From: Escherichia coli
GTDB lineage: Bacteria; Pseudomonadota; Gammaproteobacteria; Enterobacterales; Enterobacteriaceae
Assembly: GCF_016026235.1 (NCBI RefSeq)
Contig: NZ_CP065613.1
DNA length: 64,000 bases
Direction: 5' to 3' (one strand)
This document shows, in pieces, positions 9,991 to 33,651 of this stretch; within the stretch, counting starts at the first letter, position 1; each line of letters starts with the position of its first letter. The notes under the pieces were generated by a model. It worked only from the letters and a program-made list of their open reading frames with translations. It was not told where the DNA came from and ran no database searches. Made by a program: the position numbers and the translations under genes.

Positions 9991-12861
9991 TTATATTTTT
10001 TCCAGCGCAGTGAGTATTTTCTCCGGTGTGAAATGCCATTCGCGTAACCAGATGCCGCATGCATCGTGAATTGCGGTAGCAATCGCCGGAGCTGCGCCAT
10101 TTACACCGATTTCCGAGATCGATTTCGCCCCGAACGGGCCGACTTTATCGTCGCTCGGCACCAGCACAGCGCGGAAATCACGCGGAATGTCACCAATTTT
10201 CGGTGCGCCGTAACTGCGTAAATCACGCGTTAACGGGTGACCTTCGGCGTCATAAATGATCTCTTCGCTCATACTGTGGCCGATAGCACGCAGGGTGGCA
10301 CCGTAGATTTGTCCCAACGCTAACTCTGGATTGACCGGTGTACCGCAGTCCAGCAAGGCGTAGAATTTATCCAGGCGGATTTCACCCGTACGCGTGTTGA
10401 CGGCAACTTCAGCGAAGTTTGCGCCATACGGGAAAGCGAAATCAGGCGTGATATAACTGCCAGTTCCCACCAGTGAACCAAAGCCGGTGCCGGTTTCGCC
10501 TTTATGGGCAATATCCCCGAAACTAACTTCGCCTTTCTTGCCGCGCACGACGCCCGGCGTTGCTAGTTGAACATCTGCCACTGGCTCACCCAACATTTGC
10601 GCGCCGTGGAACAGAATTTTCTCCCGCAGATTTTCCGCTGCCAAACGCGCCGCGTTACCCGAGAAGCAAGTACCGGACGAGGCATATGCGCCTTTATCAA
10701 ACAACGCATGATCGGTATCACCGGAGATAACATGCACGTCCTGCGGTGGGCAGTGCAGCACTTCTGCTGCCAGTTTCGTCACTACAGTATCCAGACCAGT
10801 ACCAATATCCGCACCGCCAGAATGAACGATAAAGGTGCCGTCCGATTCCAGTTTGATCATGCAGTTAGCCTGATCGATATCCGGGATACCCGATTTCTGC
10901 ATGATAATGGCGACGCCGCGACCGATGTGCCAGTCACCATTTTGCGGTTTCGGTGAAGACCATTGGATCATCTCGCGACCCTGACGCAGGATCTCTTCCA
11001 GTGCGCAGCTGGCGGCGGAAGGAACGGAGGTCGGCGCTTTACCTTCACCGATTGCACCGAGAATTTTCAGCTCTTGCCCTTCGTGTACCCGGTTACGTTC
11101 GATAATTTCCAGTTGGTCGATCTGTAACTGTTCAGCCAGTTCCGCTAATGCCATGGTGATAGCGAAGTTACCTTTCGGTGCGCCATAACCCTGATAAGCA
11201 CCATTTGGGCAAATGTTGCTGTAGTAGGTGGTGACCTGGAAATCGACGTTATCGCACGGATATAACGGCAGCGACAGCGCCGGTCCGTTACATGGTACGG
11301 TGAGTGAGTGGTTGCCGTAAGGGCCAGTGTTGGCGCGGAAATCCATCTTCACTGCCGTCAGGCGACCATCTTTTTTCGCTCCCAGTTTGACGGTGACTTT
11401 CGCGACGTGACGAGAGGTGTTAGCAATAAACTCTTCTTCACGGGTGTAGCGGAACAGGACCGGACGCCCGGTCACGCAGGTTGCCCAGGCGCACACTTCT
11501 TCCAGCAGGATGTCCTGTTTGGAACCAAAACCGCCGCCAACTCGTTCTTTAATGACATGAACTTTATGCTGTTTCATGCCCACGAGGCGCGCGACCTGGC
11601 GGCGTAAGTGCCATGGTACCTGGGTGGAGGCGTGGATAACCAGACGATCGCCGTCCATACGAGTAAAGCAGATATGTGTTTCAGTCGGGCACTGCTGCGC
11701 TTGCGTTGAGTTATAGGTTCGCTCAATGATCACATCGGCATCGGCAAAGCCTTTGTCCATATCGCCAATATGACCATGAATACTGGCGGCGATATTTTTG
11801 CGTGGACGAGAACCGATCGGGAAGTTGATGATCATATGCTCGCCGCGCTGGGCTGCATGGCTGTTATCGTCTTCCAGAGTATCTGGCGCACCAGCAACAT
11901 ACACAACCGGTTCATCGTGCACGACAGGCGCATCTTCCGCCATTGCTTCGTCGATCGACATTACCGGTTTAAGCACTTCATATTCAACGTCGATGAGCTT
12001 CAATGCTTCAAGCGCAATTTCTTCACTTTCAGCGACGACCGCAGCAACACGATCGCCGACGTGACGCATTTTCTTGCCGAACATACGGCGGTCAAGCGGT
12101 GACGGTTCCGGTGCGCTCTGCCCCCCCGGGGTATAGTAGATATCCGGGCAATTCAGATGAGTAATAACGTGAACGACGCCCGGTAAGGCTTCAGCTTTGC
12201 TGACATCCAGATGAGTAATCAGTGCGTGAGCGTGTGGGCTACGTAACATTTTAATGACGCAGGCGTCAGCCGTTACGCGGTCTTCAACATAGCAGGGCTT
12301 CGCCTGCACCATTTTTGCGGCATCAGTTTTAGGATAATGCTTACCAATGACTTCAAGGTCGTCACGGAAAGTCGGAGCGATATCAATGGTGGCCTGCGGA
12401 TTATTTTTACGTGCAACCGCCAGTTCAATGACCTGATAGTATTGTTGCCAGCCTGCATCGCGGCTGAACAAACCAGAAAGCGCGTCGTCGATCTCTTCGC
12501 GGGTAGGTGCGGCGATGCGATCGAGAAGATCGGTGATAATCAGAGCCGCAGCTGGATCGTTATAACCAGACTGCACCACGCCAACATCAACCATTGCCTG
12601 TTGAACCAGACTTAACTCGTTCCATTTGCCCAGAGATTCTGCGGTACGAATATCTGCCTTCTCTAACTGTGCGGCAATAAGCAAGGACGCGTTAACGATA
12701 TTACCGTTAAAGATAATTGCGTCAGAACCGGCAAACCCGAAGCCATCATCACTGTTGCGTACAGAGTGCATTCCCATGTTAAACAACAGCTTTTGCACGT
12801 TTTCGCCTGGATTAACGGTTAGCTCCTGAGGCGCGCCATTTAAAGTAAAGTGGATGATCAT
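9991..12861 (-). CDS. xdhD: Molybdopterin-binding xanthine-dehydrogenase-family protein with N-terminal 2Fe-2S domain, 956 aa
   Basis: Length and N-terminus MIIHFTLNGAPQELTVNPGENVQKLL match E. coli XdhD/YgfN as recalled. Confidence 0.9.
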   Translation of the reverse strand: MIIHFTLNGAPQELTVNPGENVQKLLFNMGMHSVRNSDDGFGFAGSDAIIFNGNIVNASLLIAAQLEKADIRTAESLGKWNELSLVQQAMVDVGVVQSGYNDPAAALIITDLLDRIAAPTREEIDDALSGLFSRDAGWQQYYQVIELAVARKNNPQATIDIAPTFRDDLEVIGKHYPKTDAAKMVQAKPCYVEDRVTADACVIKMLRSPHAHALITHLDVSKAEALPGVVHVITHLNCPDIYYTPGGQSAPEPSPLDRRMFGKKMRHVGDRVAAVVAESEEIALEALKLIDVEYEVLKPVMSIDEAMAEDAPVVHDEPVVYVAGAPDTLEDDNSHAAQRGEHMIINFPIGSRPRKNIAASIHGHIGDMDKGFADADVIIERTYNSTQAQQCPTETHICFTRMDGDRLVIHASTQVPWHLRRQVARLVGMKQHKVHVIKERVGGGFGSKQDILLEEVCAWATCVTGRPVLFRYTREEEFIANTSRHVAKVTVKLGAKKDGRLTAVKMDFRANTGPYGNHSLTVPCNGPALSLPLYPCDNVDFQVTTYYSNICPNGAYQGYGAPKGNFAITMALAELAEQLQIDQLEIIERNRVHEGQELKILGAIGEGKAPTSVPSAASCALEEILRQGREMIQWSSPKPQNGDWHIGRGVAIIMQKSGIPDIDQANCMIKLESDGTFIVHSGGADIGTGLDTVVTKLAAEVLHCPPQDVHVISGDTDHALFDKGAYASSGTCFSGNAARLAAENLREKILFHGAQMLGEPVADVQLATPGVVRGKKGEVSFGDIAHKGETGTGFGSLVGTGSYITPDFAFPYGANFAEVAVNTRTGEIRLDKFYALLDCGTPVNPELALGQIYGATLRAIGHSMSEEIIYDAEGHPLTRDLRSYGAPKIGDIPRDFRAVLVPSDDKVGPFGAKSISEIGVNGAAPAIATAIHDACGIWLREWHFTPEKILTALEKI

Positions 12862-13637: not shown

Positions 13638-13687
13638 CTTCTTTCCTTATTTAACCCTCTTCCCTGCGGGAAGAGGGCATCTGTCAT

Positions 13688-15016
13688 TTATGCCAGCGCA
13701 TCCATCCGACGCCACATACTGGCAGCGGCTTTTCTGGCTTGTGCATAAATGGAATCGCAATCGAAGTTAAACTGACGGTCTTCATAGACCATCACACCAT
13801 TGACCATCACGCTGTGAACGCTGCCTGAGCCCATACCGAAAGCGATATGCTCGGCGATATTGTCTGCCAGCAGCGGCGTCGGCGAGTTGTAATCGCAAAT
13901 GGTTAAATCAGCTTTGTAACCGGCTTCCAGAAGCCCAAATTTCGCGCCAAAGTTGCGGCTCATCAGTTCGTTACCGTTAGTCAGGGCTTTGGCAAAACTG
14001 TCAGGCCACAGCGGACCACCCGCATCGCGATGTTTAAAGAAGGCAAATTTCATCTCTTCAAACATGTCCGAACCAATGCCGTCCGTTCCCAACGCCAGAT
14101 TGCGGATGTCGCTAAGATGATGGTTGTAGCCGACATGGTTGTTCATGTTTGAACGGGCGTTATGCACCAGGAACGCATCGCGCTGATTGAGTAGGGTGAT
14201 GTCATCTTTCGACAAGTACAGCCCATGAGCGACCAGTGTTTTGCTGTCGATGAGATCGAATTGCGCCAGTCGTGCCAGCAGGTCTTTGCCGTACCAGTGG
14301 TGACTGTAGGAAACGTCGTAAAGGTCTTCCGCAGCGTGAATATGCAAACCACGGCCTGTGGCTTTCACGGCTTCACGCAGCATCTCCAGACCGGCATCTG
14401 GCACGGTAAACGGCGCGTGAGCACCGATATGTGCTTCCACCAGATACGGCTCGGTTGCTGCTTTCTTCGCCTCATCAATCTGACGGGCAAAGCGGATGTT
14501 TTCTTCTACACCTTCCTGCAACTCTTTGATGCCGTTGTTACGGTCAGTAGTTTCAAAACAGGTCATCGCGCGCAGGCCAACTTTTAAAAATGCGTCGCGC
14601 AATGTGGAGAGCGACCCGCCGATATACGCCGGAGAGGCATGGTGATCGATAACCGATGTACATCCGCTCTTAATCGCTTCCAGGGAACAAATCAGTCCGC
14701 TGTAATAGAGCGACTCTTCATCAAGGGCGCGATCGAGCCGCCACCAGAGATTTTTCAGCGTTGAGATGAAATCCGGGCAGGGGGCGATGTTTGCCATAAT
14801 TCCGCGGGAAAGCCCCGAGTAAAAATGGTTGTGCGAGCAGACAATTCCCGGCATCACAATCCGACTATGCATCTCTTTGTAGCTGGCATCGGGGTAGCGT
14901 TGCGTCAGGGCATCGCCGATAGCGACAATCACGTCATTTTCGATAGCGATATCAACGCCTTCCTGCACTTTCGCCGGGTGTAACTGCACTGCGGTGACAT
15001 TCTTCAGAATCAACAT
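13688..15016 (-). CDS. ssnA: Putative aminohydrolase (amidohydrolase superfamily), 442 aa; start MLILKN
   Basis: Metal-binding HxH motif (SHNHF); length and synteny match SsnA. Confidence 0.85.
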   Translation of the reverse strand: MLILKNVTAVQLHPAKVQEGVDIAIENDVIVAIGDALTQRYPDASYKEMHSRIVMPGIVCSHNHFYSGLSRGIMANIAPCPDFISTLKNLWWRLDRALDEESLYYSGLICSLEAIKSGCTSVIDHHASPAYIGGSLSTLRDAFLKVGLRAMTCFETTDRNNGIKELQEGVEENIRFARQIDEAKKAATEPYLVEAHIGAHAPFTVPDAGLEMLREAVKATGRGLHIHAAEDLYDVSYSHHWYGKDLLARLAQFDLIDSKTLVAHGLYLSKDDITLLNQRDAFLVHNARSNMNNHVGYNHHLSDIRNLALGTDGIGSDMFEEMKFAFFKHRDAGGPLWPDSFAKALTNGNELMSRNFGAKFGLLEAGYKADLTICDYNSPTPLLADNIAEHIAFGMGSGSVHSVMVNGVMVYEDRQFNFDCDSIYAQARKAAASMWRRMDALA

Positions 15017-15018
15017 GA

Positions 15019-18000
15019 TTACACCTCCACGCGGCCCAGCAGATAATGATGATGCTGGTGGACATGGCTGATGATGCGGCACATATCGTTCAGCTCCGGT
15101 GGTACGTTGTTGAACTGACCTTCGCTGTCGATGTTTAACACCCAGCTTTGGTTATTCAGTCGTACTCGTACCCGGCAATCTTCCACAAGGAAGCCTGGGT
15201 TGCTGCTGTTATCAAAGTCTTGCGCCAGGCTGAAGACGGTGATTTTGTCTTTGTACGGTTTACCGTTCCACGGACAGAACTGAGCGCAGTTGCCGCATTC
15301 GTTACAGTAAGCGTCGAGGTGCAGCGTCTGGAAACGGTTCTGGAAGCCTGGGACCGCAATGGAGACGTTGGCGCGGTTCGGGCAGACATCCACACACTTG
15401 CTGCAAACGTAGTTACATTCGAGGCAGCGAGCGGCTTCCTGGGCGACAAACGCGTCACGATCGTCACTGTTCACCAGCGTGATAGAGATATCGCCTTTAC
15501 GTTGATAGATTTCCGCCGGATTGACGTTGTTCCAGTATTTATCGTTCTGGTGGGAACGGATATTTTCCCGACTAAGGATGGCATCGGTCGCCCGACGCGC
15601 GGTTCCGACAGCAGCGACAATGGAGGATGGTCCGCGCTGTACGTCGCCGATCATAAAGACGTCAGTCAGACGAGTTTCGCCATTATGGTCGACGTCTGGC
15701 CAGCCGTTTTTGTCCAGCGGCACGCCCATCGCATTCAGGGCTTCAGTATCCTGCTGTTCACCAATGGCGGTGATCAGGCTGTCTACATGCAGTGTTACTG
15801 TTTCATTGGTTTCAACCGGACGACGACGACCTTTCTCATCCGGTTCGCCAAGCGACATAACGCGCAAGGTTAAGGTGCCATCAGCATCGAAACGTTCCGG
15901 ATTATTCAGGAAACGGAACTCTACGCCGTCGTGCAACGCTTCTTCATACTCTTCGCGCCATGCGGGCATCTCTTGTAGTGAACGACGGTAAACGATCGTT
16001 GCTTTTTCTACGCTTGGAACGCGTAACACCGAACGAGCGCAGTCCATTGCGGTGTTACCCGCCCCGACAACGACCACATGTTTGCCCAGCTTGAGCGCTG
16101 TACCCTTGTTGTATTCACGCAGGAAGGGGAGTGATTTCCAGACATTTTGGTTGTCGCCCGCCAGTTTCACACCGCTATTTTTATCGGTGCCTGTGGCAAT
16201 CAGAACATAATGGAAGCCCTGATTTTTTAACTGTTCAACGGTCAAATCGGGTGAGCAGCCATACTCAAATTTCACGCCGTGAGCGGCAACAAAATCGATA
16301 TCGTGCTGAATTAACTCTGCAGGAATACGGAACTGAGGGATGATATTTTTCACCACGCCGCCTGCATTGGCTTCGCGTTCAAACAGCGTAACCGGATGGC
16401 CCGCTCTGGCAAGGAAGTAACCTGCAGCCAGACCCGCCGGACCTGCACCAATCACGGCAACCGGATGGCGTGAACCAGAACCGGCTGGTTTGTGCCAACG
16501 TTGCTTATATTCATCCCAACCTTTTTCCAGCGCGACTTTTTTCAGTTCGCGGATATTCAGTGCACTGTCGTAATCCAGGCGGGTACAGTTGTATTGGCAC
16601 TGGTGATCGCAAATATGACCGGTAATGGCGGGCAGGGCGTTGCGTTGGTAGATAAGTTCCAGCGCGTCGGCATAGCGGTGTTCGCCAAGCAGACGGATGT
16701 ATTCCGGAATATCTTGCTTGATAGCGCAGGCAGTAACACAGGGGGCAACGTAGCAGTCGGTCAGCGGCAGGTCTTCTGCCACTTCAATACGCTCTTCTGG
16801 CTTCCAGTGTTTCTGGGTGTATTCCATGGTTAACGCATCTGCTGCCAGTCTGTTCAGTCGTTCGACGTCAACATGGTCAAGCCCCCAGGCGTCGGAGCCT
16901 TCCAGCTCGCGCATGCAGGCACTTAAGCGCAGATAGCCGCCTGGTTTCAGCAGGTCGGTTGCCATAGTAATAGGGCGAATACCAGTATCAAAAATATCGC
17001 GGATAGTCAGCTGACTGGCACCACCGGAATAAGAAATGGGCAGTTTGCCGTCAAAGGCGCGAGAGAGAACTGCTGCAACATTGATGGAGAGCGGGAACAG
17101 CGCACGGCCTGACATATACATCTCTTCACCAGGCAGTGCGCCTTTATTGTTGATGGTGCCGAGAGTGTTAGTCAGTTTTACGCCAAAGCCGAGTGATTTT
17201 TCTTTTGCCAGTGCCATCAGGCGTTCCAGCATTTCCAGTGCTTGCGTCAGCTTGAGGTCGTGATCAAATGACTCTTCTTTTAAGCCTATGTAACCGAAAC
17301 CGCAGACATCGAGGATCTCACGAACACGCGCGTATCCCAGTAAGGTCGGGTTAAGTTTCACAAAGGTGTTGAGCCCTTTTTCTTCCAGCATGTAGCGGCA
17401 AATGGCTTCGATTTCATGCGGAGGACAGCCGTGCATGGTGGAGAGGGTGACGCCATGCACCATACTGGTGGGGATGCGAGCGGGTAAGGCTTGCAAGCTT
17501 TCGCGTTTTTCCTGCAATCCGTGGCGAGCTAAAAATGCGTCATCCTGGAGTAATTTATTCAGCGTATCGCGATATTGCGCGAATTTCGGATGGTCAGATG
17601 CGTCCATCATATTGTCGATGAACTGTTGCATTGGCGGTTGCTTAATACCTTCGAGGTTGTAACCGACGCTCATATTAAAGATGAACGATTTACCGGAATC
17701 AGAAGGTTGGAACATCGCTTCGAGAAGGTGCAGGGCAAACCAGGCTTTGAGGTATTCATCCCAGGCTTTAAGCAGGGTAAATTCGGTAGACCATTCGGTG
17801 TTAAAGCACTCGTCTTCGGCATCAATACAGGGCTTTTCCAGCTCTAGGCGGTCAAGAATTTGGACGGTTTTTAGTTCGATGAAACGTCCGCCAGTCAGCC
17901 AGGAAGTGACAATATTTTGCGCGAGCTGCGTGTGCGGGCCAGCGGCAGGGCCGACGGGAGTGGCACAGGTTTCACCGAAGACGCTAACAGTTTTACCTTT

Positions 18001-18117
18001 TACAGGTGAGTAAAACTGTTGCTCGGGAATACCAAAGATTGAGCGTTGTTGTTGGTATTCATCAAATATGCGCGTCAAAAGTTCCTCAAACGGAATGGGA
18101 CGCATAATATCCCCCAT
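15019..18117 (-). CDS. ygfK: Large Fe-S / FAD-NAD oxidoreductase, 1032 aa
   Basis: N-terminus MGDIMRPIPFEELL, size, Cys-rich clusters and dinucleotide-binding GAGPAG motif; synteny. Confidence 0.9.
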   Translation of the reverse strand: MGDIMRPIPFEELLTRIFDEYQQQRSIFGIPEQQFYSPVKGKTVSVFGETCATPVGPAAGPHTQLAQNIVTSWLTGGRFIELKTVQILDRLELEKPCIDAEDECFNTEWSTEFTLLKAWDEYLKAWFALHLLEAMFQPSDSGKSFIFNMSVGYNLEGIKQPPMQQFIDNMMDASDHPKFAQYRDTLNKLLQDDAFLARHGLQEKRESLQALPARIPTSMVHGVTLSTMHGCPPHEIEAICRYMLEEKGLNTFVKLNPTLLGYARVREILDVCGFGYIGLKEESFDHDLKLTQALEMLERLMALAKEKSLGFGVKLTNTLGTINNKGALPGEEMYMSGRALFPLSINVAAVLSRAFDGKLPISYSGGASQLTIRDIFDTGIRPITMATDLLKPGGYLRLSACMRELEGSDAWGLDHVDVERLNRLAADALTMEYTQKHWKPEERIEVAEDLPLTDCYVAPCVTACAIKQDIPEYIRLLGEHRYADALELIYQRNALPAITGHICDHQCQYNCTRLDYDSALNIRELKKVALEKGWDEYKQRWHKPAGSGSRHPVAVIGAGPAGLAAGYFLARAGHPVTLFEREANAGGVVKNIIPQFRIPAELIQHDIDFVAAHGVKFEYGCSPDLTVEQLKNQGFHYVLIATGTDKNSGVKLAGDNQNVWKSLPFLREYNKGTALKLGKHVVVVGAGNTAMDCARSVLRVPSVEKATIVYRRSLQEMPAWREEYEEALHDGVEFRFLNNPERFDADGTLTLRVMSLGEPDEKGRRRPVETNETVTLHVDSLITAIGEQQDTEALNAMGVPLDKNGWPDVDHNGETRLTDVFMIGDVQRGPSSIVAAVGTARRATDAILSRENIRSHQNDKYWNNVNPAEIYQRKGDISITLVNSDDRDAFVAQEAARCLECNYVCSKCVDVCPNRANVSIAVPGFQNRFQTLHLDAYCNECGNCAQFCPWNGKPYKDKITVFSLAQDFDNSSNPGFLVEDCRVRVRLNNQSWVLNIDSEGQFNNVPPELNDMCRIISHVHQHHHYLLGRVEV

Positions 18118-18198
18118 AACCCTCTCCTTAGCTTATACAGATATCATTGAGTGACCGGTGTTGAGAAATCCGGTGGTTTAGGGGGATAGAGCAACAAT

Positions 18199-18216
18199 CG
18201 CACCACTCTTGCCAGG
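18199..18216 (-). promoter_or_regulatory. Candidate sigma54 (-24/-12) promoter upstream of ygfK
   Basis: Minus-strand TGGCAAGAGTGGTGC has GG and GC with canonical -24/-12 spacing, about 85-100 bp upstream of the ygfK start; a sigma54 activator (ygeV) is in the cluster. Confidence 0.3.
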
Positions 18217-18438
18217 TTTGGCGGGAAATATAAAAAAATGTGAGGCGGCTCGAAACTTAAGGGCTTTTTGTGAATGAACTCACAGGTGCTAAATGAGAAT
18301 TAAAATCACTCCTGAAAATTATTATTGCCAGCCCATTTATCAATTTTTCTCTTTTCTCAAAATCAGTGATTCCTTATCATTATGATAATGAGTGCCGGAA
18401 GGATTAAATATTTGAACGCAATCGTTTAACTACGTTTT

Positions 18439-19890: not shown

Positions 19891-19937
19891 CGGCCCGGGT
19901 ATTCCGGGTTACTGAAAGGATATCCATTGAGGTTGGT

Positions 19938-21563: not shown

Positions 21564-21603
21564 ATGAAAATGGCCGGATGGTATTACCCACCCGGCCTTA
21601 AAA

Positions 21604-24021: not shown

Positions 24022-25233
24022 TTATTCGGTTGCCAGCCAGCTTAACGGGATTGCAGCGTACATCGCGGCACAGGTCACCAGGTGAGATTTCCAGGTTTTT
24101 TCGTTAGGTGCATGCGCTTCAGGTTCTTTACCCGGGCCAAAGCCGATCACCGGAATGCCGTGACGGCCCATGATAGATACGCCGTTAGTTGAGAAGGTCC
24201 ACTTATCAACAACCGGCGCTTTGCCAAACAGCCCTTCGTAGGCATTCACCAGTGCTTTAACGGTGAAGTGATCTTCTTCCACTTTCCAGGTCGGGAAGTA
24301 GCATTCGGTTGGGTAAACCAGGCCAGTCCAGGACGGACGGTCGTAGTTGTACATAGAAACAACCGCGTTAGCTTTCTGTACTGCAGGCAGGGCGCGGATT
24401 TCGTCCAGCGCGCCTTCCCAGGTTTCGCCCCAGGTCAGACGGCGGTCAATAGAGACGGCGCAGCTATCTGCTACAGCGCAACGGCTTGGGGATGTGAAGA
24501 AGATTTCAGAAACGGTGAGGGTGCCTTTGCCGAGGAATTCGTCATAACCCAGACGTTGGGAGAGTTCTTGTAATTCGCCAAGAATCGGACCCATTTTGAA
24601 AATGGCGTTGTCACCGCGTTCTGGCGCAGAACCGTGGCAGCTAACACCCTGAACATCAATACGAATTTCCATACGACCGCGCTGACCACGGTATACCTGG
24701 CAGTCGGTTGGTTCGGTACTGACCACAAATTCCGGGCGAATGCCGGATTGTTCAATAATGTACTGCCAGCACAGACCGTCGCAGTCTTCTTCCTGCACAG
24801 TACCGGTAACCAGCAGGGTATATTCATCTTCCAGACCGAGGTCTTTAATGATTTTACCGGCATAAACCATAGATGCCATGCCGCCTTCCTGGTCGGAAGT
24901 ACCGCGACCACCGATCAGCTCATCAGTTTCCATGCCTTCGTACGGATCGAAGTCCCAGTTTTTGATGTTGCCAATGCCGACGGTATCGATATGAGCGTCC
25001 ATTGCCACCAGACGCGGGCCGTGGCCGATATAACCGAGAACGTTACCCATCGGGTCGATTTCAACTTTATCGAAGCCGACTTTTTCCATCTCTTCTTTAA
25101 TACGATGTACTACGCGTTTCTCGTCGCAGCTTTCACTGGGAATAGCAACCATGTCGCGCAGGAAGCGAGTCATATCCGCCTGGTAATCTTTTGCTTTTTC
25201 AAGAATCAGTTTGAATGGAATATTCTTAGCCAT
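24022..25233 (-). CDS. ygeY: M20-family peptidase/deacylase, 403 aa (start MAKNIPF)
   Basis: Size and synteny. Confidence 0.85.
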
Positions 25234-25289: not shown

Positions 25290-26486
25290 TTAAGGTGCTA
25301 CAGCGTGTTTGCCTTCCCAGACAACTTCGCGGTAGTGCTTCACGTCGGTGTCGCCTTCAGTGCTGATAACCAGCACTACGGCATCTTTGTTCAGCGCCAG
25401 TTTTTGCATCAGGCTTTGACGTTGCGGGTGATAATGAACCGCCGCGAGAACGCCCAAACCGACAGCGCCGGATTCACCGGAGATGATGCGCGGGTCGTTG
25501 CCGTACGGATTACCCAGCACGCGCATACCTAATGCGGCAACGCTGTCCTGGCAGGAGATGAATTGGGTGGCGCAGTTACGTAGGATTTCCCAGCCCAGCG
25601 GGTTAGGTTCGCCACAGGCCAGGCCCGCCATGATGGTGGCCATATCACCGCCAACGTTGACGATGTCGCCTTTGACGCCGGAGCGATAAATACAGTCAGC
25701 TTTGTCAGGTTCAACAATAATGCTGTGCAGATTTTGCGGGCTGTAGACGTCGACCAGATAACCCAGCACACCACCGGCCATTGCACCGACACCGGCTTGC
25801 AGCAGAACGTGTGTCGGGGTTACGCCCATTTCACGCATTTGCTCGACGGCTTCATCTGCCAGGGTTGCGTAGCCTTGCATGATCCAGGTTGGGATTTTGG
25901 TGTAACCTTCCCATGCTGTGTCCTGTACCACTTCCCAGCCGTGCTGCTGCGCGTGTTGCATGGTCAGGCGAACGGTATCGTCATAGTTCATATCCGTGAC
26001 GATGCACTCGGCACCGAGGTTCAGAATGGCGTCAACGCGTTCCTGAGCAGAACCTTTCGGCATGTAAATCACCGCATTCTGTCCGAGTTGCTGTGCTGCC
26101 CATGCCACACCGCGCCCGTGGTTGCCGTCGGTGGTGGTCGCGAAGGTCATTTTTTCGCCGATGGCATTTTTCAGGTGCTCAAATGACAGCGTTTCGATAT
26201 CAAGATGATATTTTTCACACAATAATTGAGCGATGGCGTACGCACCGCCGAGCATTTTGAAGGCGTTCAGACCGAATCGTTTTGATTCGTCTTTGACAAG
26301 AATTTTCTTCACACCAAAAAGGTTTGCGAGATCGTCCAGCGCACAAAGCGGTGTTGGGCGATAACCAGCTATTTTCTGGTGGAACTGGCGCGCCAGTTTG
26401 GCCTGGCTTTGCGAAAAGAGCGGTGATGTTTCGCCGTTGAAAAATTTGTTATCGGCGATATCAATCTTCAATGAGAAAACGGACAT
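25290..26486 (-). CDS. dpaL: Diaminopropionate ammonia-lyase (PLP-dependent), 398 aa
   Basis: Size and synteny (K-12 ygeX). Confidence 0.85.
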
Positions 26487-26543: not shown

Positions 26544-27734
26544 TTATTTCACGCGTTCTTGCGCTTCTTTCAGCAGTTGCTCGAGCAGTGCACCTGGTTT
26601 GGCGTATTTACGGGACAGGATCATCGCGGCGATGATATAAGGCTTCCAGCTGGCTTCTTTGTAGGTAGCGATACGGTATTTTTCGAATACGCCTTCAGTC
26701 ACTTCACCTTCTTTGCAGGATACGCCGCTGATATCAGCTGGCAGGCAGTGCATGTACAGGGCTTCGCCATCACGGGTCAGTTCCATCATCTCTTCAGTAC
26801 AATGCCAGTCTTTGTGTTGCGCGTTCTGTGCCAGACACTGTTTTTCCAGTGCTTTTAAGCCTTCGTGATCGTTCGCACGCAGCAATTCAGTACGCTCTTC
26901 CATCACTTTGTAAGGTGCCCATGACTTCGGATAAACGATGTCTGCGTCTTTGAAGGCTTCTTCCATGCTGGTGACCTGACGGAAGCTACCACCGGAGGCT
27001 TTAGCATTGTTTTTCGCCACTTCAACCACATCCGGGATCAGGTCGTAGCCTTCCGGATGGGCCAAGGTGACATCCATACCGAAGCGAGTCATCAGACCGA
27101 TGATGCCTTGTGGTACAGAGAGCGGTTTGCCATAGCTTGGAGAGTAGGCCCAGGTCATGGCGATTTTTTTACCTTTCAGGTTTTCCAGTGAACCAAAGTG
27201 TTCACGTAACCACGCGAGGTCAGCCATTGACTGAGTCGGGTGGTCAATATCGCATTGCAGGTTCACTAAAGCCGGACGCTGTGGCAGTACACCCTGCTTG
27301 TAACCGTCATCAAGTGCAGCGCCAACTTCACGCATATAGGCGTTGCCTGCGCCCAGATACATATCGTCGCGAATACCAATAGCGTCGGCGCAGAAGGAGA
27401 TCATATTGGCGGTTTCACGCACGGTTTCGCCGTGAGCGATTTGTGATTTGCCTTCATCGAGATCTTGCTGTGCAAGGCCGAGCAGGTTAAGCGCGGAAGC
27501 ATAAGAGAAGCGGGTACGAGTGGAGTTGTCGCGGAATACGGAAATACCTAATCCACTATTAAAGACTTTGGTTGAGATGTTTTCAGCACGCAGTGCTTTT
27601 AATGCTGCGGCAACGTCCAGTACTTGTTTCAGTTCATCTGGCGTCTGTTCCCACGTTAACAAAAAATCTTTCTCGTGAAGGTGAGAGGTCAGCGAATTGA
27701 TATCCTTAATCAGCTCATTAACAGTTTTCATCAT
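26544..27734 (-). CDS. ygeW: Carbamoyltransferase-family protein, 396 aa
   Basis: Transcarbamylase-like STRTR motif; size and synteny. Confidence 0.9.
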   Translation of the reverse strand: MMKTVNELIKDINSLTSHLHEKDFLLTWEQTPDELKQVLDVAAALKALRAENISTKVFNSGLGISVFRDNSTRTRFSYASALNLLGLAQQDLDEGKSQIAHGETVRETANMISFCADAIGIRDDMYLGAGNAYMREVGAALDDGYKQGVLPQRPALVNLQCDIDHPTQSMADLAWLREHFGSLENLKGKKIAMTWAYSPSYGKPLSVPQGIIGLMTRFGMDVTLAHPEGYDLIPDVVEVAKNNAKASGGSFRQVTSMEEAFKDADIVYPKSWAPYKVMEERTELLRANDHEGLKALEKQCLAQNAQHKDWHCTEEMMELTRDGEALYMHCLPADISGVSCKEGEVTEGVFEKYRIATYKEASWKPYIIAAMILSRKYAKPGALLEQLLKEAQERVK

Positions 27735-27822
27735 AAAGTCCCGGTAGTGGAATGACAGGCAAAGTGGTTTATTTCACTGTGACTTGCCAAAGTGATTGGT
27801 GTTTTCACAGCTATACCTGGGA

Positions 27823-27841
27823 CTAACAATAAGTGTGCCAG
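27823..27841 (-). promoter_or_regulatory. Candidate sigma54 promoter upstream of ygeW (weaker match)
   Basis: Minus-strand CTGGCACACTTATTGTT: consensus -24 TGGCAC with correct spacing, but -12 element is TTGT instead of TTGC; about 90 bp upstream of ygeW start. Confidence 0.25.
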
Positions 27842-28209
27842 AATTATCCACGGGGCTGCAAAAGACTAATTTGACGGATAATGTGTGGGGTTGATCACAA
27901 ATTGATGCTAGCTTCCGGTTGTTTGTAAAATACGAAAACGTTTGGCTTTTTTTATTGCGTTATTTATTTGCTGCTAAGTATCAGAAATAAGATAAAGGGG
28001 CAGGCTATCCCTCGTCAGTTTGATAAACTCACCGCCGTAATTCTCATATTGATATAGAAATGTGATATCTCTTCCATAATTTCATTAGAAAGTGATAAAA
28101 ATCTTATGTTTTTATCAAAGCCAATTTCGCCTGAGTTAATATCATCATGATCTGTGAACCATCAACGTCTTCAATGATCGACTTTTAAGTAAGTCTGGAA
28201 GGTAAAGCT

Positions 28210-29988
28210 ATGGAGCTTGCTACTACGCAGTCAGTATTGATGCAAATTCAACCGACAATTCAGCGTTTTGCCAGAATGCTTGCCAGCGTTTTGCAGCTTG
28301 AGGTTGAGATCGTTGATGAAAACTTGTGTCGCGTCGCCGGAACGGGCGCGTATGGGAAGTTTCTTGGTCGCCAGTTGAGCGGCAACTCACGCCTGCTCCG
28401 CCACGTCCTGGAAACGAAAACTGAAAAAGTTGTGACACAGTCTCGCTTCGATCCCCTTTGCGAAGGTTGCGATAGTAAAGAAAATTGCCGCGAAAAAGCA
28501 TTTCTGGGTACGCCTGTCATTTTACAGGATCGTTGTGTTGGGGTGATAAGTTTGATTGCCGTTACCCACGAGCAACAAGAGCATATCAGTGATAATTTAC
28601 GCGAATTTTCTGATTATGTTCGCCATATATCCACCATTTTTGTTTCGAAACTTCTGGAGGATCAGGGGCCAGGAGATAACATCAGTAAAATATTCGCGAC
28701 CATGATCGATAATATGGATCAGGGCGTATTAGTTGTTGATGATGAAAGTCGGGTTCAGTTTGTTAATCAGACTGCCTTAAAAACACTTGGCGTTGTACAA
28801 AATAATATTATTGGGAAACCTATCCGTTTCAGACCATTAACATTTGAGAGTAATTTTACCCATGGACATATGCAGCATATTGTTTCGTGGGACGATAAAA
28901 GTGAATTAATCATTGGTCAATTGCATAACATTCAGGGCCGACAATTATTTTTAATGGCGTTTCACCAATCGCATACCAGTTTTTCTGTAGCAAATGCACC
29001 TGATGAACCACATATTGAACAATTGGTTGGCGAGTGCCGTGTTATGCGGCAATTAAAACGACTCATTAGCCGTATTGCACCCAGCCCATCCAGCGTTATG
29101 GTGGTTGGTGAAAGCGGCACGGGTAAAGAAGTCGTCGCCCGTGCAATCCATAAGTTGAGCGGAAGACGGAATAAACCCTTTATTGCTATCAACTGTGCCG
29201 CGATTCCGGAGCAGCTTCTGGAGAGCGAACTGTTCGGTTATGTTAAAGGCGCATTTACTGGCGCTTCTGCCAACGGTAAAACAGGGTTGATTCAGGCGGC
29301 GAATACGGGCACGCTGTTTCTCGATGAAATAGGTGATATGCCATTAATGTTGCAGGCTAAATTACTGCGCGCTATTGAGGCACGTGAAATTCTGCCGATT
29401 GGTGCCAGTAGCCCAATACAAGTCGACATTCGCATCATTTCTGCAACTAACCAGAATTTGGCCCAGTTCATTGCCGAAGGTAAATTCCGCGAAGATCTCT
29501 TCTACCGACTTAATGTTATCCCGATAACTCTGCCACCGCTGCGTGAACGTCAGGAAGATATTGAACTACTGGTGCATTACTTTTTACATCTGCATACCCG
29601 TCGTCTGGGATCGGTTTATCCTGGCATTGCTCCCGATGTCGTCGAAATATTGCGTAAGCATCGTTGGCCCGGAAACCTGCGCGAGTTAAGCAATTTGATG
29701 GAATATCTGGTTAACGTTGTTCCTTCAGGTGAAGTTATCGACAGCACGCTATTGCCGCCAAATCTGCTGAATAATGGCACAACGGAGCAAAGTGATGTAA
29801 CAGAGGTCACTGAGGCACACCTGTCACTCGATGATGCGGGCGGCACGGCGCTGGAGGAGATGGAAAAGCAAATGATCCGCGAGGCGCTTTCACGTCATAA
29901 CAGCAAGAAGCAAGTTGCTGATGAACTGGGCATCGGCATTGCTACGCTCTATCGCAAGATTAAGAAATATGAGTTGTTAAACACATAA
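28210..29988 (+). CDS. ygeV: Sigma54-dependent transcriptional activator (enhancer-binding protein), 592 aa
   Basis: AAA+ sigma54-interaction motifs (GESGTGKE, GAFTGA) and C-terminal HTH; divergent from ygeW. Confidence 0.9.
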   Translation: MELATTQSVLMQIQPTIQRFARMLASVLQLEVEIVDENLCRVAGTGAYGKFLGRQLSGNSRLLRHVLETKTEKVVTQSRFDPLCEGCDSKENCREKAFLGTPVILQDRCVGVISLIAVTHEQQEHISDNLREFSDYVRHISTIFVSKLLEDQGPGDNISKIFATMIDNMDQGVLVVDDESRVQFVNQTALKTLGVVQNNIIGKPIRFRPLTFESNFTHGHMQHIVSWDDKSELIIGQLHNIQGRQLFLMAFHQSHTSFSVANAPDEPHIEQLVGECRVMRQLKRLISRIAPSPSSVMVVGESGTGKEVVARAIHKLSGRRNKPFIAINCAAIPEQLLESELFGYVKGAFTGASANGKTGLIQAANTGTLFLDEIGDMPLMLQAKLLRAIEAREILPIGASSPIQVDIRIISATNQNLAQFIAEGKFREDLFYRLNVIPITLPPLRERQEDIELLVHYFLHLHTRRLGSVYPGIAPDVVEILRKHRWPGNLRELSNLMEYLVNVVPSGEVIDSTLLPPNLLNNGTTEQSDVTEVTEAHLSLDDAGGTALEEMEKQMIREALSRHNSKKQVADELGIGIATLYRKIKKYELLNT

Positions 29989-29999
29989 CCTCAGTGAAT

Positions 30000-30019
30000 C
30001 CGGCCTGAATTCAGGCCGG
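30000..30019. terminator. Bidirectional hairpin between convergent ygeV and xdhC
   Basis: Perfect palindrome CCGGCCTGAATTCAGGCCGG between two convergent stop codons. Confidence 0.5.
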
Positions 30020-30027
30020 ATATCCTT

Positions 30028-30507
30028 TTACTTCGTTTTCTCGCAATCCAGAACTGTATTTACAATCATCTGATACCCCGTGCAGCGACAAAGATTTCCC
30101 GCCAGTCCGCGACGAATTTCCGTAATGGTTAATGGCTTCTCGCGTGGTTTCGCCAGCATTGCCGTGGTAGCCATAATCAGGCCAGGCGTACAAAACCCGC
30201 ACTGCACTGCGCCGGATTTCGCATAAGCCTGCTGAACATGAGAAAGTTTTCCGCCTTTCGCTTCACCTTCAAGCGTGCGGATCTCTTTTCCTTCAGCCCA
30301 GGCGGCAAGGTATAAGCAACTGTCTATTGCTGTGCCGTCGACCAGCACCGTACAGGCACCACATTCACCCACGCAGCACCCTTGTTTGACACTTAGCAGT
30401 CCTTGTTCGCGGAGTAATTCCGAGAGCGGCGTGCCTGGTGCGGCATGAAGCTGAAAAGGCATCCCGTTAATGGTGCATTCGATGGTAATTGTTTCGCTGT
30501 GATTCAT
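30028..30507 (-). CDS. xdhC: Xanthine dehydrogenase Fe-S subunit, 159 aa
   Basis: 2Fe-2S ferredoxin-type Cys motifs; size and synteny. Confidence 0.9.
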
Positions 30508-31382
30508 TGCAATTTTCCCCCCGCCGCGGCGACGGCTTCGCTAATCACTTTTTTGGTCATCGTCTGGATGAGATGCAGACGAAACTCTTTACTGGCCCGC
30601 CATGAAGAACGCGGGGCGACATCTTGCAGGACAGATTCGCTGATAGCTTCCAGCGTTTGCAGGTTTAATGGCGCATTTTGTGCAGTCTGTTCGGCATGTT
30701 GGCAGCGAATCGGCGTTGGCGCGGCAACACCAAATGCCAGGCGTAATTCGCTGAAATTGCCGTTATCCAGTCGGCAATGTGCGGCGCAGCCAATTGTTGA
30801 AATATCCATTGCGTCGCGCATGGCATATTTAAAATGCGCGCTGCCCGCGTGTTCTTTCGGCTGTGGCGGAAAATGAAAGGCGACGAGGATTTCGTCATGC
30901 TCAAGAGACACTTTGCCCGGCCCGGTGTGAAAGCCATTAATCGGGACGAAACGAACACCGCGCGGGGAGTGGATCTCCAGTTTCGCGTCATAAATTAGCG
31001 TTGGCGTGGCAGAATCTGCGCTGGTGGCACCGTTGCAAATATTTCCACCGTAGGTAGCGACGTTACGGATCTGCGGTCCAGCAATGGACGTGGCCGCAGC
31101 ACATAACGCCGGGAGATGACGTTGAGTTATAGGATCTTCTATTAGCTGGGTAAATGTCGTTGCAGAGCCGATACGTAGCGAGCCATCTTCCGCCAGCGTA
31201 ATTCCCCGCAGCTCCGCCAGATTATGAATATCAACAATATGGCGATAACGGTCATTGTGATGGTGGAGCTGAATCAGTACGTCAGTGCCACCGGCGAGCA
31301 GTTTGGCCTGCGGGTTGTCAGCCAGCAGGTTGATGGCATCGGCAAGGGTTGCTGCGCGATGGTAAGAAGCAAAATCAAACAT
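30504..31382 (-). CDS. xdhB: Xanthine dehydrogenase FAD-binding subunit, 292 aa
   Basis: Size and synteny. Confidence 0.9.
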
Positions 31383-31392
31383 GATGTTATCC

Positions 31393-33651
31393 TCAAATCA
31401 ATCCTGCCAGATGGAACTCTTCATATAACCGTTTTGGCGTCAGCGGCAGTGTATTGATTGCAACACCGGTAGCCATCTTCACCGCGTTACGAATAGCAGC
31501 GGCAACAGGAATTATTGGTGGCTCACCCAGTGACTTATGTCCGTATGCGGATTGCGGCTCATTGATTTCGACGAACGCGCTTTCCAGTTGTGGCAGATCC
31601 GGCATGGTCGGCATTTTGTAATCCAGCAGATTGGGGTTACGGACCACGCCGCTTTTAGCATCGATGATCATCTCTTCAAATAGCGCCCAGCCAATGCCCA
31701 TTCCCATTCCGCCGTGTACCTGACCTTCTGCCAGCAGTGGATTAAGAATATGCCCTGAATCATGAACGTTGAGGATGCGGTTGATGGTGACTTTGCACAG
31801 CGCAATATCGACCGTCAGATCAACAAAGGTACAGCCAAACGCCGGTGGGTTAGTGGTGGTTTTGATGGAGCTTTCAGCAGAGAGCTGCCCGCCGCGTTCA
31901 GGGTGGTAGAAAGCGTCCATCGCCAAATCTTTTAACGACATTAACGGCTCTTCCGGTCGTTCAACCAGCACGATATGGCCTTTTATCAGGGTCAGATTCA
32001 TCGCTGACTGATGTAGCATGACTGCGGCGTGAGCGATGATTTTCTCTTTTAATAATAGTGCCGCACTGCGCAGCGCAGGCGCGGCAACATAGCTCTGGCG
32101 TGAGGCAAATGCGCCGGGATCGAACGGCGTAACGTCGGTATCTTGAGTTGAAATAACGCGAACGTCGCTGACGGGAACCCCCACGGTTTCTGCCACCATT
32201 TGCGAGAAGACGGTGTCGGCACCCTGACCGATTTCCGTCGCGCCGCTTTGCACGTTGATGGTTCCATCCTGATTCATCAGAAGGCGCGCGCCTGCTATTT
32301 CTACGCCGACAGGCCAGGTGTTAGAGGTGTAGCTAAAACAGGCGACGCCAACGCCGCGGCGCAAATTGCCTTGCTGGTTCTGGCATTCTGCACGGCGTTT
32401 TTCCCATTCAAAGATTTTCCGGCCTTTTTCAAGACACTCCGGCAACCCTGCGCTGTAAATACGTTTGCCCGTGAGCGGATTAGCATCTCCTTCGCGGGCG
32501 GCGTTGCGTAAACGAATTTCAGCAGGATCAATACCTAACGCTGTCGCGGCGTCATCAAGCATAGACTCAACGGCAAATACGACTTGTGGCGCGCCATAAC
32601 CACGCATCGCACCAGCCGAGGGGTGGTTGGTATAGCAGGTCTTTGAACTGTAAGCGTAGGCACAACGAGGATAAAGGTAAGCGACTTTATTCCCCCCCGC
32701 AGAAGCGATGGAGTGCCCGTGAGATGCATAAGCGCCGGTGTTAGACAGAACATCCAGACTATAACCTTTCAATGTTCCGTCGCGGTTCACGCCCATTTGC
32801 CCGTCAATGGTAAAAGCGTGGCGGGTACGGGTTGCGAGGAAACACTCTTCACGGCTAAGGGAAACTTTCACCGGAATGCCGCCAAGCTTGCTGGTCAGGA
32901 ATGCCGCCATTGGCTCTTCCAGTACATCCTGTTTATTACCAAAACCGCCACCGACAAATGGTTTGATGACTCGTACGCATGACCAGGGAATATCCAGCGC
33001 CTGACCAACCACGCGGCGAACAATGTGCGGGATCTGGGTGCTGGAAACGATGGTAATTCGCGAGTCATCCTCCATCCACGCCAGCGATGTTACGCTTTCC
33101 ATGTGACAATGTTGAATAACGGGGGTCTGATAGTGCCCCTGTACCTGGTAGTCGGCGGCATCGATTGTTTGTTGGACATTACCCGTCGACATCGTGCTTT
33201 GTTTCAGTAAATTGCCACCGTTATGGATTGGTGCAGCGTCTTCTGCCAGCGCCGCTTCTGGCGTGGTGATAACGGGTAATTCTTGCCACTCAATGCTGAC
33301 CAATTGCGCCGCTTTTTCTGCCGTGAGTTCATCGCGGGCCACGACGATGGCAACGGCGTCACCATGATGACGAACATGGCGAGTTAGCAGTGCGCGATCG
33401 GCGGTATCGCGCTTGTTTTCGTCAAGTGTCCAGGCATGCCCAGCTGTAGCGAATGGAATATCAGGCACATCTTCCCAGGTAAAAATCGCCAGTACGCCCG
33501 GCAAACTTCTGGCTTGTTCATCATTAATACTTACGGCATAACCATGTGCGATAGGGCTACGTACATATTTCGCATAACACATGCCCGCCATAACATAATC
33601 GTCAGTATATCGTGCCCGCCCGGTGACCTTAGCAATGGCATCGACGCGCAT
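31393..33651 (-). CDS. xdhA: Xanthine dehydrogenase molybdenum-binding subunit, 752 aa (start MRVDAIAK)
   Basis: Size and synteny; internal start gives the expected length. Confidence 0.9.
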   Translation of the reverse strand: MRVDAIAKVTGRARYTDDYVMAGMCYAKYVRSPIAHGYAVSINDEQARSLPGVLAIFTWEDVPDIPFATAGHAWTLDENKRDTADRALLTRHVRHHGDAVAIVVARDELTAEKAAQLVSIEWQELPVITTPEAALAEDAAPIHNGGNLLKQSTMSTGNVQQTIDAADYQVQGHYQTPVIQHCHMESVTSLAWMEDDSRITIVSSTQIPHIVRRVVGQALDIPWSCVRVIKPFVGGGFGNKQDVLEEPMAAFLTSKLGGIPVKVSLSREECFLATRTRHAFTIDGQMGVNRDGTLKGYSLDVLSNTGAYASHGHSIASAGGNKVAYLYPRCAYAYSSKTCYTNHPSAGAMRGYGAPQVVFAVESMLDDAATALGIDPAEIRLRNAAREGDANPLTGKRIYSAGLPECLEKGRKIFEWEKRRAECQNQQGNLRRGVGVACFSYTSNTWPVGVEIAGARLLMNQDGTINVQSGATEIGQGADTVFSQMVAETVGVPVSDVRVISTQDTDVTPFDPGAFASRQSYVAAPALRSAALLLKEKIIAHAAVMLHQSAMNLTLIKGHIVLVERPEEPLMSLKDLAMDAFYHPERGGQLSAESSIKTTTNPPAFGCTFVDLTVDIALCKVTINRILNVHDSGHILNPLLAEGQVHGGMGMGIGWALFEEMIIDAKSGVVRNPNLLDYKMPTMPDLPQLESAFVEINEPQSAYGHKSLGEPPIIPVAAAIRNAVKMATGVAINTLPLTPKRLYEEFHLAGLI

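Follow-up and report, generated by a model that had tools for sequence, protein, structure and literature searches.

An unbroken Escherichia coli cluster of genes for the anaerobic catabolism of purines and uric acid beside an insertion sequence junction

What do xanthine dehydrogenase-family molybdoenzymes, an iron-sulfur flavoprotein, amidohydrolases, a carbamoyltransferase, and a carbamate kinase accomplish when they are encoded side by side, and are they still complete in a strain whose flanking DNA has been rearranged? We addressed these questions for a 64,000-nucleotide stretch of the Escherichia coli contig NZ_CP065613.1, referred to here as the window. We conclude with high confidence that positions 9991 to 33690 of the window are the E. 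coli cluster for anaerobic catabolism of purines and uric acid by the reductive (2,8-dioxopurine, or “yanthine”) pathway, including a feeder enzyme, cofactor maturation genes, and a regulator. Both the cluster and its pathway are already known and have been solved biochemically, which makes the locus a low-ranking discovery lead; what is new here is minor, namely, a candidate operator for the regulator YgeV and the uncoupling of the cluster from transporter genes by an insertion sequence (IS).

The interval holds 16 intact genes whose order and strands are the reverse complement of b2866-b2881 in E. coli K-12, according to both the listing of open reading frames (ORFs) and the RefSeq annotation of a matching genome. 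They are given below with protein identity to the K-12 product, family assignments, and the role predicted from the K-12 or family counterpart.

9991-12861, minus strand: xdhD, 956 aa, 100% identity, TIGR03313, Pfam Fer2_2, Ald_Xan_dh_C, and MoCoBD_1/2; Mo/[2Fe-2S] subunit of the urate-to-2,8-dioxopurine reductase (DOPDH)
12858-13637, minus strand: ygfM, 99.6%, TIGR03312, FAD_binding_5; FAD subunit and partner of XdhD, overlapping the xdhD start by 4 nt
13688-15016, minus strand: ssnA, 98.6%, TIGR03314; amidohydrolase opening the reduced pyrimidine ring to give ureidomethyl-hydantoin
15019-18117, minus strand: ygfK, 99.4%, TIGR03315, Fer4_20 and Pyr_redox_2; Fe-S flavoprotein, NAD(P)H:2,8-dioxopurine oxidoreductase (DOPOR)
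18439-19017, minus strand: mocA, 99.5%, TIGR03310; molybdenum cofactor cytidylyltransferase
19120-19890, plus strand: yqeC, 100%, TIGR03172, Pfam YqeC; selenium cofactor trait marker
19938-21563, plus strand: yqeB, 99.8%, TIGR03309 over residues 271-526, XdhC_CoxI and XdhC_C over residues 12-247; putative maturation factor for the molybdenum hydroxylase or selenium cofactor
21604-22536, minus strand: yqeA (arcC), 100%, TIGR00746; carbamate kinase, carbamoyl phosphate plus ADP to ATP
22584-23969, minus strand: hyuA, 99.6%, TIGR02033; hydantoinase, ureidomethyl-hydantoin to 2,3-diureidopropionate
24022-25233, minus strand: ygeY, 100%, TIGR03526; M20 amidase removing the second ureido group to give 2,3-diaminopropionate
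25290-26486, minus strand: ygeX/dpaL, 99.7%, TIGR03528; pyridoxal phosphate-dependent diaminopropionate ammonia-lyase yielding pyruvate and 2 NH3
26544-27734, minus strand: ygeW, 100%, TIGR03316, structure 3Q98; knotted carbamoyltransferase, phosphorolysis of 2,3-diureidopropionate to carbamoyl phosphate
28210-29988, plus strand: ygeV, 99.7%; sigma-54 enhancer-binding protein with PAS, AAA+, and HTH_8 domains, probable activator of the cluster
30028-30507, minus strand: xdhC, 100%, NF007387; [2Fe-2S] subunit of xanthine dehydrogenase
30504-31382, minus strand: xdhB, 100%, NF007427; FAD subunit of xanthine dehydrogenase
31393-33690, minus strand: xdhA, 99.7%, NF007426; Mo subunit of xanthine dehydrogenase, which would convert xanthine to urate and feed XdhD

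A tblastn search with the 16 K-12 proteins recovered every one of them end to end and gap free at 98.6 to 100% identity, with no frameshift or internal stop; XdhD, YgeW, YgeY, YqeA, YqeC, XdhB, and XdhC are identical to their K-12 counterparts, and SsnA (98.6%) marks the minimum. All 16 frames are uninterrupted, and none contains an in-frame UGA that could specify selenocysteine. The score with their own NCBIfam model exceeds the curated cut-off for 15 of the 16 products. The remaining one, YgeV, has no dedicated NCBIfam model, its best NCBIfam matches fall under the cut-off, and it was identified by its Pfam domains. XdhD scores 2122 bits with TIGR03313 (cut-off, 1102) versus 517 bits with the XdhA model, which identifies it as an XdhD-type enzyme distinct from XdhA. 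YgfK and SsnA form an adjacent pair, each passing its own model, with 2 nt between the ygfK stop and the ssnA start; in its middle region, YgfK is similar to dihydropyrimidine dehydrogenase and NfnA. HyuA, YgeW, YgeY, and YgeX, on which the later steps depend, are likewise all present and intact. We found no experimental structures of XdhD or YgfK themselves, only of relatives, and an Rfam scan of the whole window returned no riboswitch or RNA element within the cluster, its only hits being tRNA-Gly and OmrA/OmrB at positions beyond it. The genes named in a preliminary description of this DNA, made from the letters alone, are all where it put them, in that order and on the expected strands (ORFs, annotation, and tblastn); the interval it gave does frame the cluster, except that its right edge, 33651, is the K-12 xdhA start, whereas the open frame here and the RefSeq annotation start at 33690 (765 aa), with NF007426 aligned from residue 5.

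That description also proposed anaerobic purine breakdown ending in ATP formation from carbamoyl phosphate, which agrees with two reconstitutions of the pathway published in 2025, and it regarded several steps as biochemically unassigned, which was true until about 2023 but is no longer so, as every catalytic step was reconstituted in those two studies. Li et al. (2025, Life Metab; PMC12507026) used mostly K-12 enzymes, with HyuA, and UacY as an alternative to YgeW, taken from Clostridioides difficile. In their hands a ΔxdhA mutant did not consume xanthine, with XdhABC making urate from it; XdhD together with a copurifying ∼30-kDa protein, putatively YgfM, converted urate and NADH to 2,8-dioxopurine; YgfK coupled with SsnA converted 2,8-dioxopurine and NAD(P)H to ureidomethyl-hydantoin; HyuA opened the hydantoin ring to give 2,3-diureidopropionate (also assayed in bioRxiv 10.1101/2025.04.24.650524); and YgeW with phosphate removed one ureido group, followed by YgeY and then YgeX to yield pyruvate (PMC12507026). 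Liu et al. (2025) obtained ATP from 2,3-diureidopropionate with YgeW and YqeA in vitro and reported that pathway mutants build up the matching intermediates; they also assayed YgfK and YgeY and described the part played by YgeX (bioRxiv 10.1101/2025.04.24.650524). Glu606 in the active site of K-12 XdhD has been proposed to orient urate (PMC12507026), and the XdhD of the window is 100% identical to the sequence in which that residue was described.

Carried over from the K-12 proteins by 98.6 to 100% identity, these activities suggest that the proteins of the window convert urate to pyruvate via 2,8-dioxopurine. XdhABC would oxidize xanthine to urate, which XdhD-YgfM would convert with NADH to 2,8-dioxopurine; YgfK would then use NAD(P)H to dearomatize 2,8-dioxopurine by reduction, allowing SsnA to open the pyrimidine ring to ureidomethyl-hydantoin and HyuA to open the hydantoin ring to 2,3-diureidopropionate. 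One ureido group would be phosphorolyzed by YgeW to carbamoyl phosphate, from which YqeA, with ADP, would form ATP, CO2, and NH3, while YgeY would hydrolyze the other ureido group to leave 2,3-diaminopropionate for conversion by YgeX to pyruvate and 2 NH3. The net reaction would consume urate and four reducing equivalents and release pyruvate, 2 CO2, 4 NH3, and one ATP made by substrate-level phosphorylation. Against first expectation, XdhD-YgfM works reductively rather than as a hydroxylase, and the activity of YgfK is that of a 2,8-dioxopurine reductase rather than one acting on selenate. Nothing that we found in the sequence contradicts the pathway assignment.

Transcription of the cluster points in the same direction. 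Chromatin immunoprecipitation sequencing of sigma-54 in K-12 by Bonocora et al. placed sites 5′ of xdhA, ygeW, and ygfK and one within yqeC (PMC4591121). All four occur in the window, each identical to K-12 over the matched stretch, so that promoters of the GG-N10-GC (−24/−12) type stand in front of the operons; terminator-like hairpins close the transcription units.

18190-18206, minus strand: GTGGTGCGATTGTTGCT, sigma-54 promoter of ygfK-ssnA-ygfM-xdhD, matching K-12 site OS31
19521-19537, plus strand: TGAGCACGAACCTTGCA, intragenic sigma-54 promoter in yqeC driving yqeB, with 16 matched bases (19522-19537) identical to K-12 site IS34
27825-27841, minus strand: CTGGCACACTTATTGTT, sigma-54 promoter of ygeW-ygeX-ygeY-hyuA-yqeA, identical to K-12 site OS30
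33746-33762, minus strand: CTGGCGTAAATCTTGCC, sigma-54 promoter of xdhABC, identical to K-12 site OS29
9966-9981: terminator-like hairpin at the end of the transcription unit, from a hairpin search
21572-21597: GC-rich hairpin between the converging yqeB and yqeA, with a 10-bp stem including 8 GC pairs followed by a T-rich tail, likely a bidirectional terminator
29998-30021: hairpin between the converging ygeV and xdhC, with a 10-bp stem including 7 GC pairs, likely a bidirectional terminator

IS34 was proven to be the yqeB promoter in K-12 by mutagenesis, quantitative reverse transcription-PCR, and Western blotting (PMC4591121), and a genomic SELEX peak for RpoN lies in the spacer between ygeV and ygeW (PMC8743547). 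Across the orthologous regions of 13 Enterobacterales, the −24 TGG and −12 TTGTTGC elements of the ygfK promoter are invariant. The natural candidate for the activator is YgeV itself, in which Pfam recognizes Sigma54_activat at residues 272-439 (E = 8.5e-71), HTH_8 at residues 548-587, a PAS match at residues 162-206, and an AAA-lid; the genes of the cluster form a single “YgeV” expression module (iModulon), and in Clostridiales the equivalent genes are the regulon of another sigma-54 activator, DioR. The genes are co-regulated and their functions form one pathway, as opposed to lacking common control or serving unrelated ends, and the grouping made in the preliminary description is therefore not refuted.

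Where might YgeV bind? Comparison of the regions 5′ of the three intergenic sigma-54 promoters revealed a common dyad, TTMTCA-N3-TGATA, 106 to 208 bp upstream, and matches to the consensus for CRP lie closer to some of the promoters.

18374-18388: TTATCATAATGATAA, a perfect palindrome and an exact match to TTMTCATWWTGATA on both strands, candidate YgeV site for the ygfK promoter
28041-28054: TTCTCATATTGATA, a dyad matching the motif exactly, candidate YgeV site common to the divergent ygeV and ygeW
33860-33873 and 33881-33894: CACTCATATTGATA and TTATCACATTGATT, two dyad-like sites 5′ of the xdhA promoter, 21 bp apart and with two mismatches each
18269-18284: CRP-consensus site, TGTGA-N6-TCACA, 5′ of the ygfK promoter, the only match with zero mismatches in the 64 kb and a putative target for CRP
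27884-27899: TGTGGGGTTGATCACA, a CRP-like site with 1 mismatch just 5′ of the ygeW promoter

From the TTCTCATATTGATA dyad it is about 208 bp downstream to the ygeW −24 element and, in the other direction, about 160 bp downstream to the ygeV start codon. The two sites 5′ of xdhA, of putative function, lie 106 and 127 bp upstream of its −24 element. The window contains 9 dyad matches versus 2.4 expected in 64 kb, and 5 of the 9 are concentrated in the roughly 1 kb of DNA that precedes the three intergenic promoters. Allowing at most one mismatch, and with sigma-54 elements detected by regular expression, we found a dyad match 5′ of ygfK in 14 of 15 proteobacterial orthologous loci, 11 of which place it 141 to 187 bp upstream of a detected sigma-54 element. 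An alignment of the ygfK upstream region from the 13 Enterobacterales has a mean column identity of 49%, within which the sigma-54 elements, the dyad, and the CRP-consensus block are conserved. The dyad also occurs beside the sigma-54 promoters of alternative molybdenum-hydroxylase operons, near ygeV in a Rhodocyclaceae genome, and as tandem pairs in Endozoicomonas. These patterns make the dyad a candidate upstream activating site for YgeV. A further copy, TTCTCACATTGAGA, is located inside yqeC (19765-19778) and is kept in seven other loci; it is about 160 bp upstream of yqeB, yet downstream of the mapped intragenic sigma-54 promoter. We also considered as a separate motif the 10-mer ATGAGAATTA, which has exactly three copies in the 64 kb, each near a sigma-54 promoter, and the orthologous alignment indicates that it is better read as a dyad half-site (TTCTCAT) and/or part of a CRP-like site.

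The CRP-consensus block of ygfK is perfect in E. coli and largely conserved across Enterobacterales, and CRP-like sites with one mismatch lie 45 to 60 bp upstream of the ygeW and yqeC promoters. Such sites beside promoters fit the repression of the pathway by glucose and the native Crp site in the ygeV-ygeW spacer that were reported for this system (PMC12507026). The CRP pattern as a whole is not enriched in the window (31 matches versus 27 expected), and only the promoter-adjacent sites with 0 or 1 mismatch stand out. We hypothesize that YgeV would activate the four promoters from the conserved dyad, with the CRP-like sites mediating glucose repression.

The cofactor genes bear on a further suggestion of the preliminary description, that of a possible selenium-dependent molybdenum hydroxylase component, which is borne out as a gene association: YqeB (TIGR03309) and YqeC (TIGR03172), both passing equivalog cut-offs, are encoded between two enzyme operons and near a molybdenum hydroxylase. 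MocA would make the cytosine dinucleotide form of the molybdenum cofactor, and YqeB and YqeC are presumed maturation factors for a labile selenium cofactor, a role with clostridial genetic support that may extend to E. coli. The genetic requirement for yqeB comes from C. difficile only, the growth of which is reported to depend on selenium or SelD (PMC11448449), and the DOPDH of Clostridium sporogenes is inactive when purified from a selD mutant (bioRxiv 10.1101/2025.04.24.650524). We did not see selD among the ORFs of the window or the identified flanking genes. Taken jointly, one could propose that the dyad is the YgeV site, that a PAS activator sensing urate or 2,8-dioxopurine fires the four promoters with CRP, and that XdhD and XdhA need a selenium cofactor provided by YqeB, YqeC, and SelD, against the view that molybdenum hydroxylases dependent on selenium are not made by E. 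coli; we offer this combination tentatively, judging it somewhat more apt to fail than to hold.

The grouping of these genes extends well beyond the strain studied here. The cluster interval is matched in 5331 of 5426 complete E. coli genomes, and in 5148 of these the match spans 80% or more of the interval; the exact YgfK and SsnA sequences are found in about 19 assemblies, labelled E. coli. The preliminary description had suggested co-occurrence across genomes as a check, and we ran it by aligning SsnA with 40 distant representatives and retrieving 80 loci, one genome per species, of which the 42 of at least 18 kb were counted. Within 10 kb of SsnA these 42 loci encode YgfK (28 loci), a molybdenum-hydroxylase large subunit (28), YgeY (27), HyuA (21), YqeA (16), and YgeW (14), and at least three partners are near SsnA in 27. 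The loci come from Enterobacterales, Rhodocyclaceae, Endozoicomonas, Spirochaetota, Sporomusaceae, Ignavibacteria, and Bacillota, so that the same genes surround SsnA in other phyla too, and this co-occurrence reproduces the published distribution. Because it is kept in E. coli genomes and the neighbours of SsnA are kept across phyla, the cluster is no chance grouping. A betaproteobacterial metagenome-assembled genome of the Rhodocyclaceae (CAJQTY010000001.1) carries xdhABC-ygfK-ssnA-ygfM-xdhD-mocA-yqeC-yqeB-ygeV at 41 to 76% protein identity to E. coli, and ygeWXY-hyuA-yqeA are absent from the 21 kb examined.

How does the locus compare with systems already described? It shares with the uricolytic cluster of K-12 (b2866-b2881) the 16 genes, their order and orientation, products that are 98.6 to 100% identical, and the four sigma-54 promoter sequences, and differs from it at two places. 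The yqeA-yqeB spacer of K-12 is longer by about 180 bp; that in the window (21563-21604) is 40 bp and contains only the terminator hairpin, as in most E. coli examined, K-12 MG1655 being the longer form. Furthermore, in K-12 xdhD is followed by xanQ-guaD-ghxQ-ygfS-ygfT-uacT, whereas in the window it is followed by 55 bp of xanQ, ISEc60, and cas3. The uric acid clusters of C. sporogenes and C. difficile (XdhAC/DOPDH, YgfK or UacX, SsnA, HyuA, YgeW or UacY, YgeY, and YgeX) have the same chemistry, core enzyme families, yqeB/yqeC linkage, and control by a sigma-54 activator (the DioR regulon). The clostridial DOPDH, however, has no FAD subunit and makes no use of NAD(P)H (bioRxiv 10.1101/2025.04.24.650524), whereas E. 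coli XdhD-YgfM uses NADH, and C. difficile has UacX in place of YgfK and the hydrolase UacY in place of YgeW and YqeA, thereby forgoing ATP (PMC12507026).

The logic of the pathway also has parallels in better-known catabolism. Reductive pyrimidine degradation by PydA (dihydropyrimidine dehydrogenase), PydB (dihydropyrimidinase), and PydC likewise proceeds by ring reduction, opening by a cyclic amidohydrolase, and removal of the ureido group, and the likeness is visible in the proteins, as the middle region of YgfK matches dihydropyrimidine dehydrogenase and HyuA passes the dihydropyrimidinase model TIGR02033. A purine, in contrast, must first lose its 6-oxo group and has two rings and two ureido groups, one of which is removed by phosphorolysis that yields ATP. 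The arginine deiminase pathway, with ornithine carbamoyltransferase and carbamate kinase, similarly couples a catabolic carbamoyltransferase running in reverse to carbamate kinase for substrate-level ATP, but its donor is citrulline, not 2,3-diureidopropionate, and YgeW belongs to the separate “knotted” YgeW family (TIGR03316, 3Q98).

On the left flank of the cluster, homology to K-12 ends at 9771, 55 bp into xanQ.

8474-9773: IS4-like element ISEc60, with an ORF for a 437-aa transposase at 8497-9810, truncating xanQ on one side and adjoining the cas3 upstream region on the other
38-8295: type I-E cas operon, cas1 to casA and then cas3, the latter split into overlapping ORFs at 5607-7280 and 7159-8295

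Beyond the xanQ stub, the window lacks the remainder of xanQ as well as guaD, ghxQ, ygfS, ygfT, and uacT, which directly follow xdhD in K-12. The cas genes are oriented as in K-12 while the xdh region is inverted, for which the simplest explanation is that recombination between two ISEc60 copies inverted roughly 140 kb (in K-12 terms), placing the second junction outside the window. The cas3/ISEc60 junction occurs in no complete E. coli genome of the collection; GCA_031665325.1, among the assemblies with the exact YgfK and SsnA sequences, has an xdhD-transposase-cse1 arrangement consistent with it, and the nearest complete genome, FDAARGOS_943 (NZ_CP065615.1), has the same junction of IS, xanQ stub, and xdhD. 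The cas3 stretch falls 11 nt short of the length of intact alleles, and no complete E. coli genome matches it at more than 97.3% identity. The contrast drawn in the preliminary description between an intact catabolic cluster and a damaged CRISPR-Cas neighbour is thus correct, with 16 unbroken frames on one side and a cas3 split in two on the other.

The flanks contain more IS elements and deletions. An IS1 transposase remnant (35551-36054, in the region 35100-36500) occupies the place where other E. coli have ETT2 type III secretion remnants, ygeQ, and yqeF/yqeG, and kduI follows it directly, indicating that the region of the ETT2 remnant, ygeQ, and yqeF/yqeG has been deleted. A further IS4-family transposase ORF (49175-50521) lies beside tas and overlaps its extended frame (48024-49373). 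The window also carries a tRNA-Gly gene at 34939-35009 and the tandem small RNA genes OmrA/OmrB at 44275-44559, between galR and aas (Rfam RF00079; 86 and 97 bits). In FDAARGOS_943 the cluster itself (11001-23128) is being inactivated: an IS5-family element interrupts xdhD, ISSfl1 interrupts yqeC, and that record contains 36 ISEc60 matches.

Several caveats attach to the interpretation given above or to parts of it. The target of YgeW is disputed, removal of the 2-ureido group giving albizziin in one study (PMC12507026) and removal of the 3-ureido group giving 3-amino-2-ureidopropanoate in the other (bioRxiv 10.1101/2025.04.24.650524). Truncation of xanQ by the IS and the loss of adjacency to guaD, ghxQ, ygfST, and uacT bear on uptake and on the link to formate. 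Selenium dependence is demonstrated for the clostridial enzymes only and is doubted for E. coli, which, according to Johnstone and Self, “likely does not make” selenium-dependent molybdenum hydroxylases. As to YgeV as a purine-sensing activator, the literature connects this protein with ethanol-stressed two-component-system knockouts and with indole and virulence. Finally, the ygfK copy of the dyad, alone among the copies, also resembles a Fur box, fitting about 13 of 19 positions by eye; the ygeW and xdhA copies do not fit, and we did not adopt this reading for the dyad.

Names still in use would support a quite different account, in which the genes are unrelated neighbours, with YgfK as a selenate reductase subunit, HyuA as a D-phenylhydantoinase, YgeW as an orphan transcarbamylase, SsnA as a viability factor of stationary phase, and XdhD as a hypoxanthine oxidase. 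RefSeq and NCBIfam indeed retain “putative selenate reductase subunit YgfK,” “D-phenylhydantoinase,” and “selenium metabolism protein SsnA.” YgfK activity, however, neither needs selenate nor is stimulated by it (bioRxiv 10.1101/2025.04.24.650524), seven of the enzymes act serially on one substrate chain in vitro with mutants accumulating the matching intermediates, and co-expression, common sigma-54 promoters, and co-localization across phyla all speak for a joint function; this account is already refuted by the in vitro reconstitution, and we consider it extremely improbable. Scarcely more credible is the classical purine fermentation of clostridia, in which xanthine passes via 4-ureido-5-imidazolecarboxylate to formiminoglycine and glycine, although it was the sole anaerobic purine pathway known before 2023 and xanthine dehydrogenase-family enzymes and amidohydrolases are present here. 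Its intermediates were searched for in the mutant metabolomes of Liu et al. and not found (bioRxiv 10.1101/2025.04.24.650524), blocked mutants being reported to contain 2,8-dioxopurine, ureidomethyl-hydantoin, and diaminopropionate and not formiminoglycine; the end enzymes of the cluster use diaminopropionate rather than glycine, and the fermentation has no role for a carbamoyltransferase or a hydantoinase.

A third possibility concerns this strain rather than the pathway, namely, that the cluster is intact yet functionally stranded or on its way to decay in an IS-rich genome, contributing little. The ISEc60 that cuts xanQ at 55 bp and joins the cluster to a degraded cas3, the IS elements and deletions in the flanks, and the interrupted xdhD and yqeC of the ISEc60-laden FDAARGOS_943 speak in its favour. 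Nevertheless, the 16 frames are unchanged, as are the terminator-like hairpins and the sequences of the four sigma-54 promoters; the 100% identity of several products to K-12 speaks against any relaxation of selection to date; and the gene for the urate transporter UacT may be located at another place on the chromosome. We regard stranding as unlikely, if far less so than the two accounts above. The reductive pathway from urate to pyruvate remains the reading that we prefer.

Roughly one-third of human urate is excreted into the intestine, where gut bacteria dispose of it by this pathway, which is being engineered into probiotic E. coli against hyperuricemia and gout (PMC12507026; bioRxiv 10.1101/2025.04.24.650524). 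For the locus itself, the analysis means that the region can be annotated with confidence and that the misleading names “selenate reductase” and “phenylhydantoinase” can be replaced. It provides a concrete candidate operator for YgeV, a regulator that has been uncharacterized, and it shows the cluster and its four sigma-54 promoters to be unbroken even in an IS-ridden strain.

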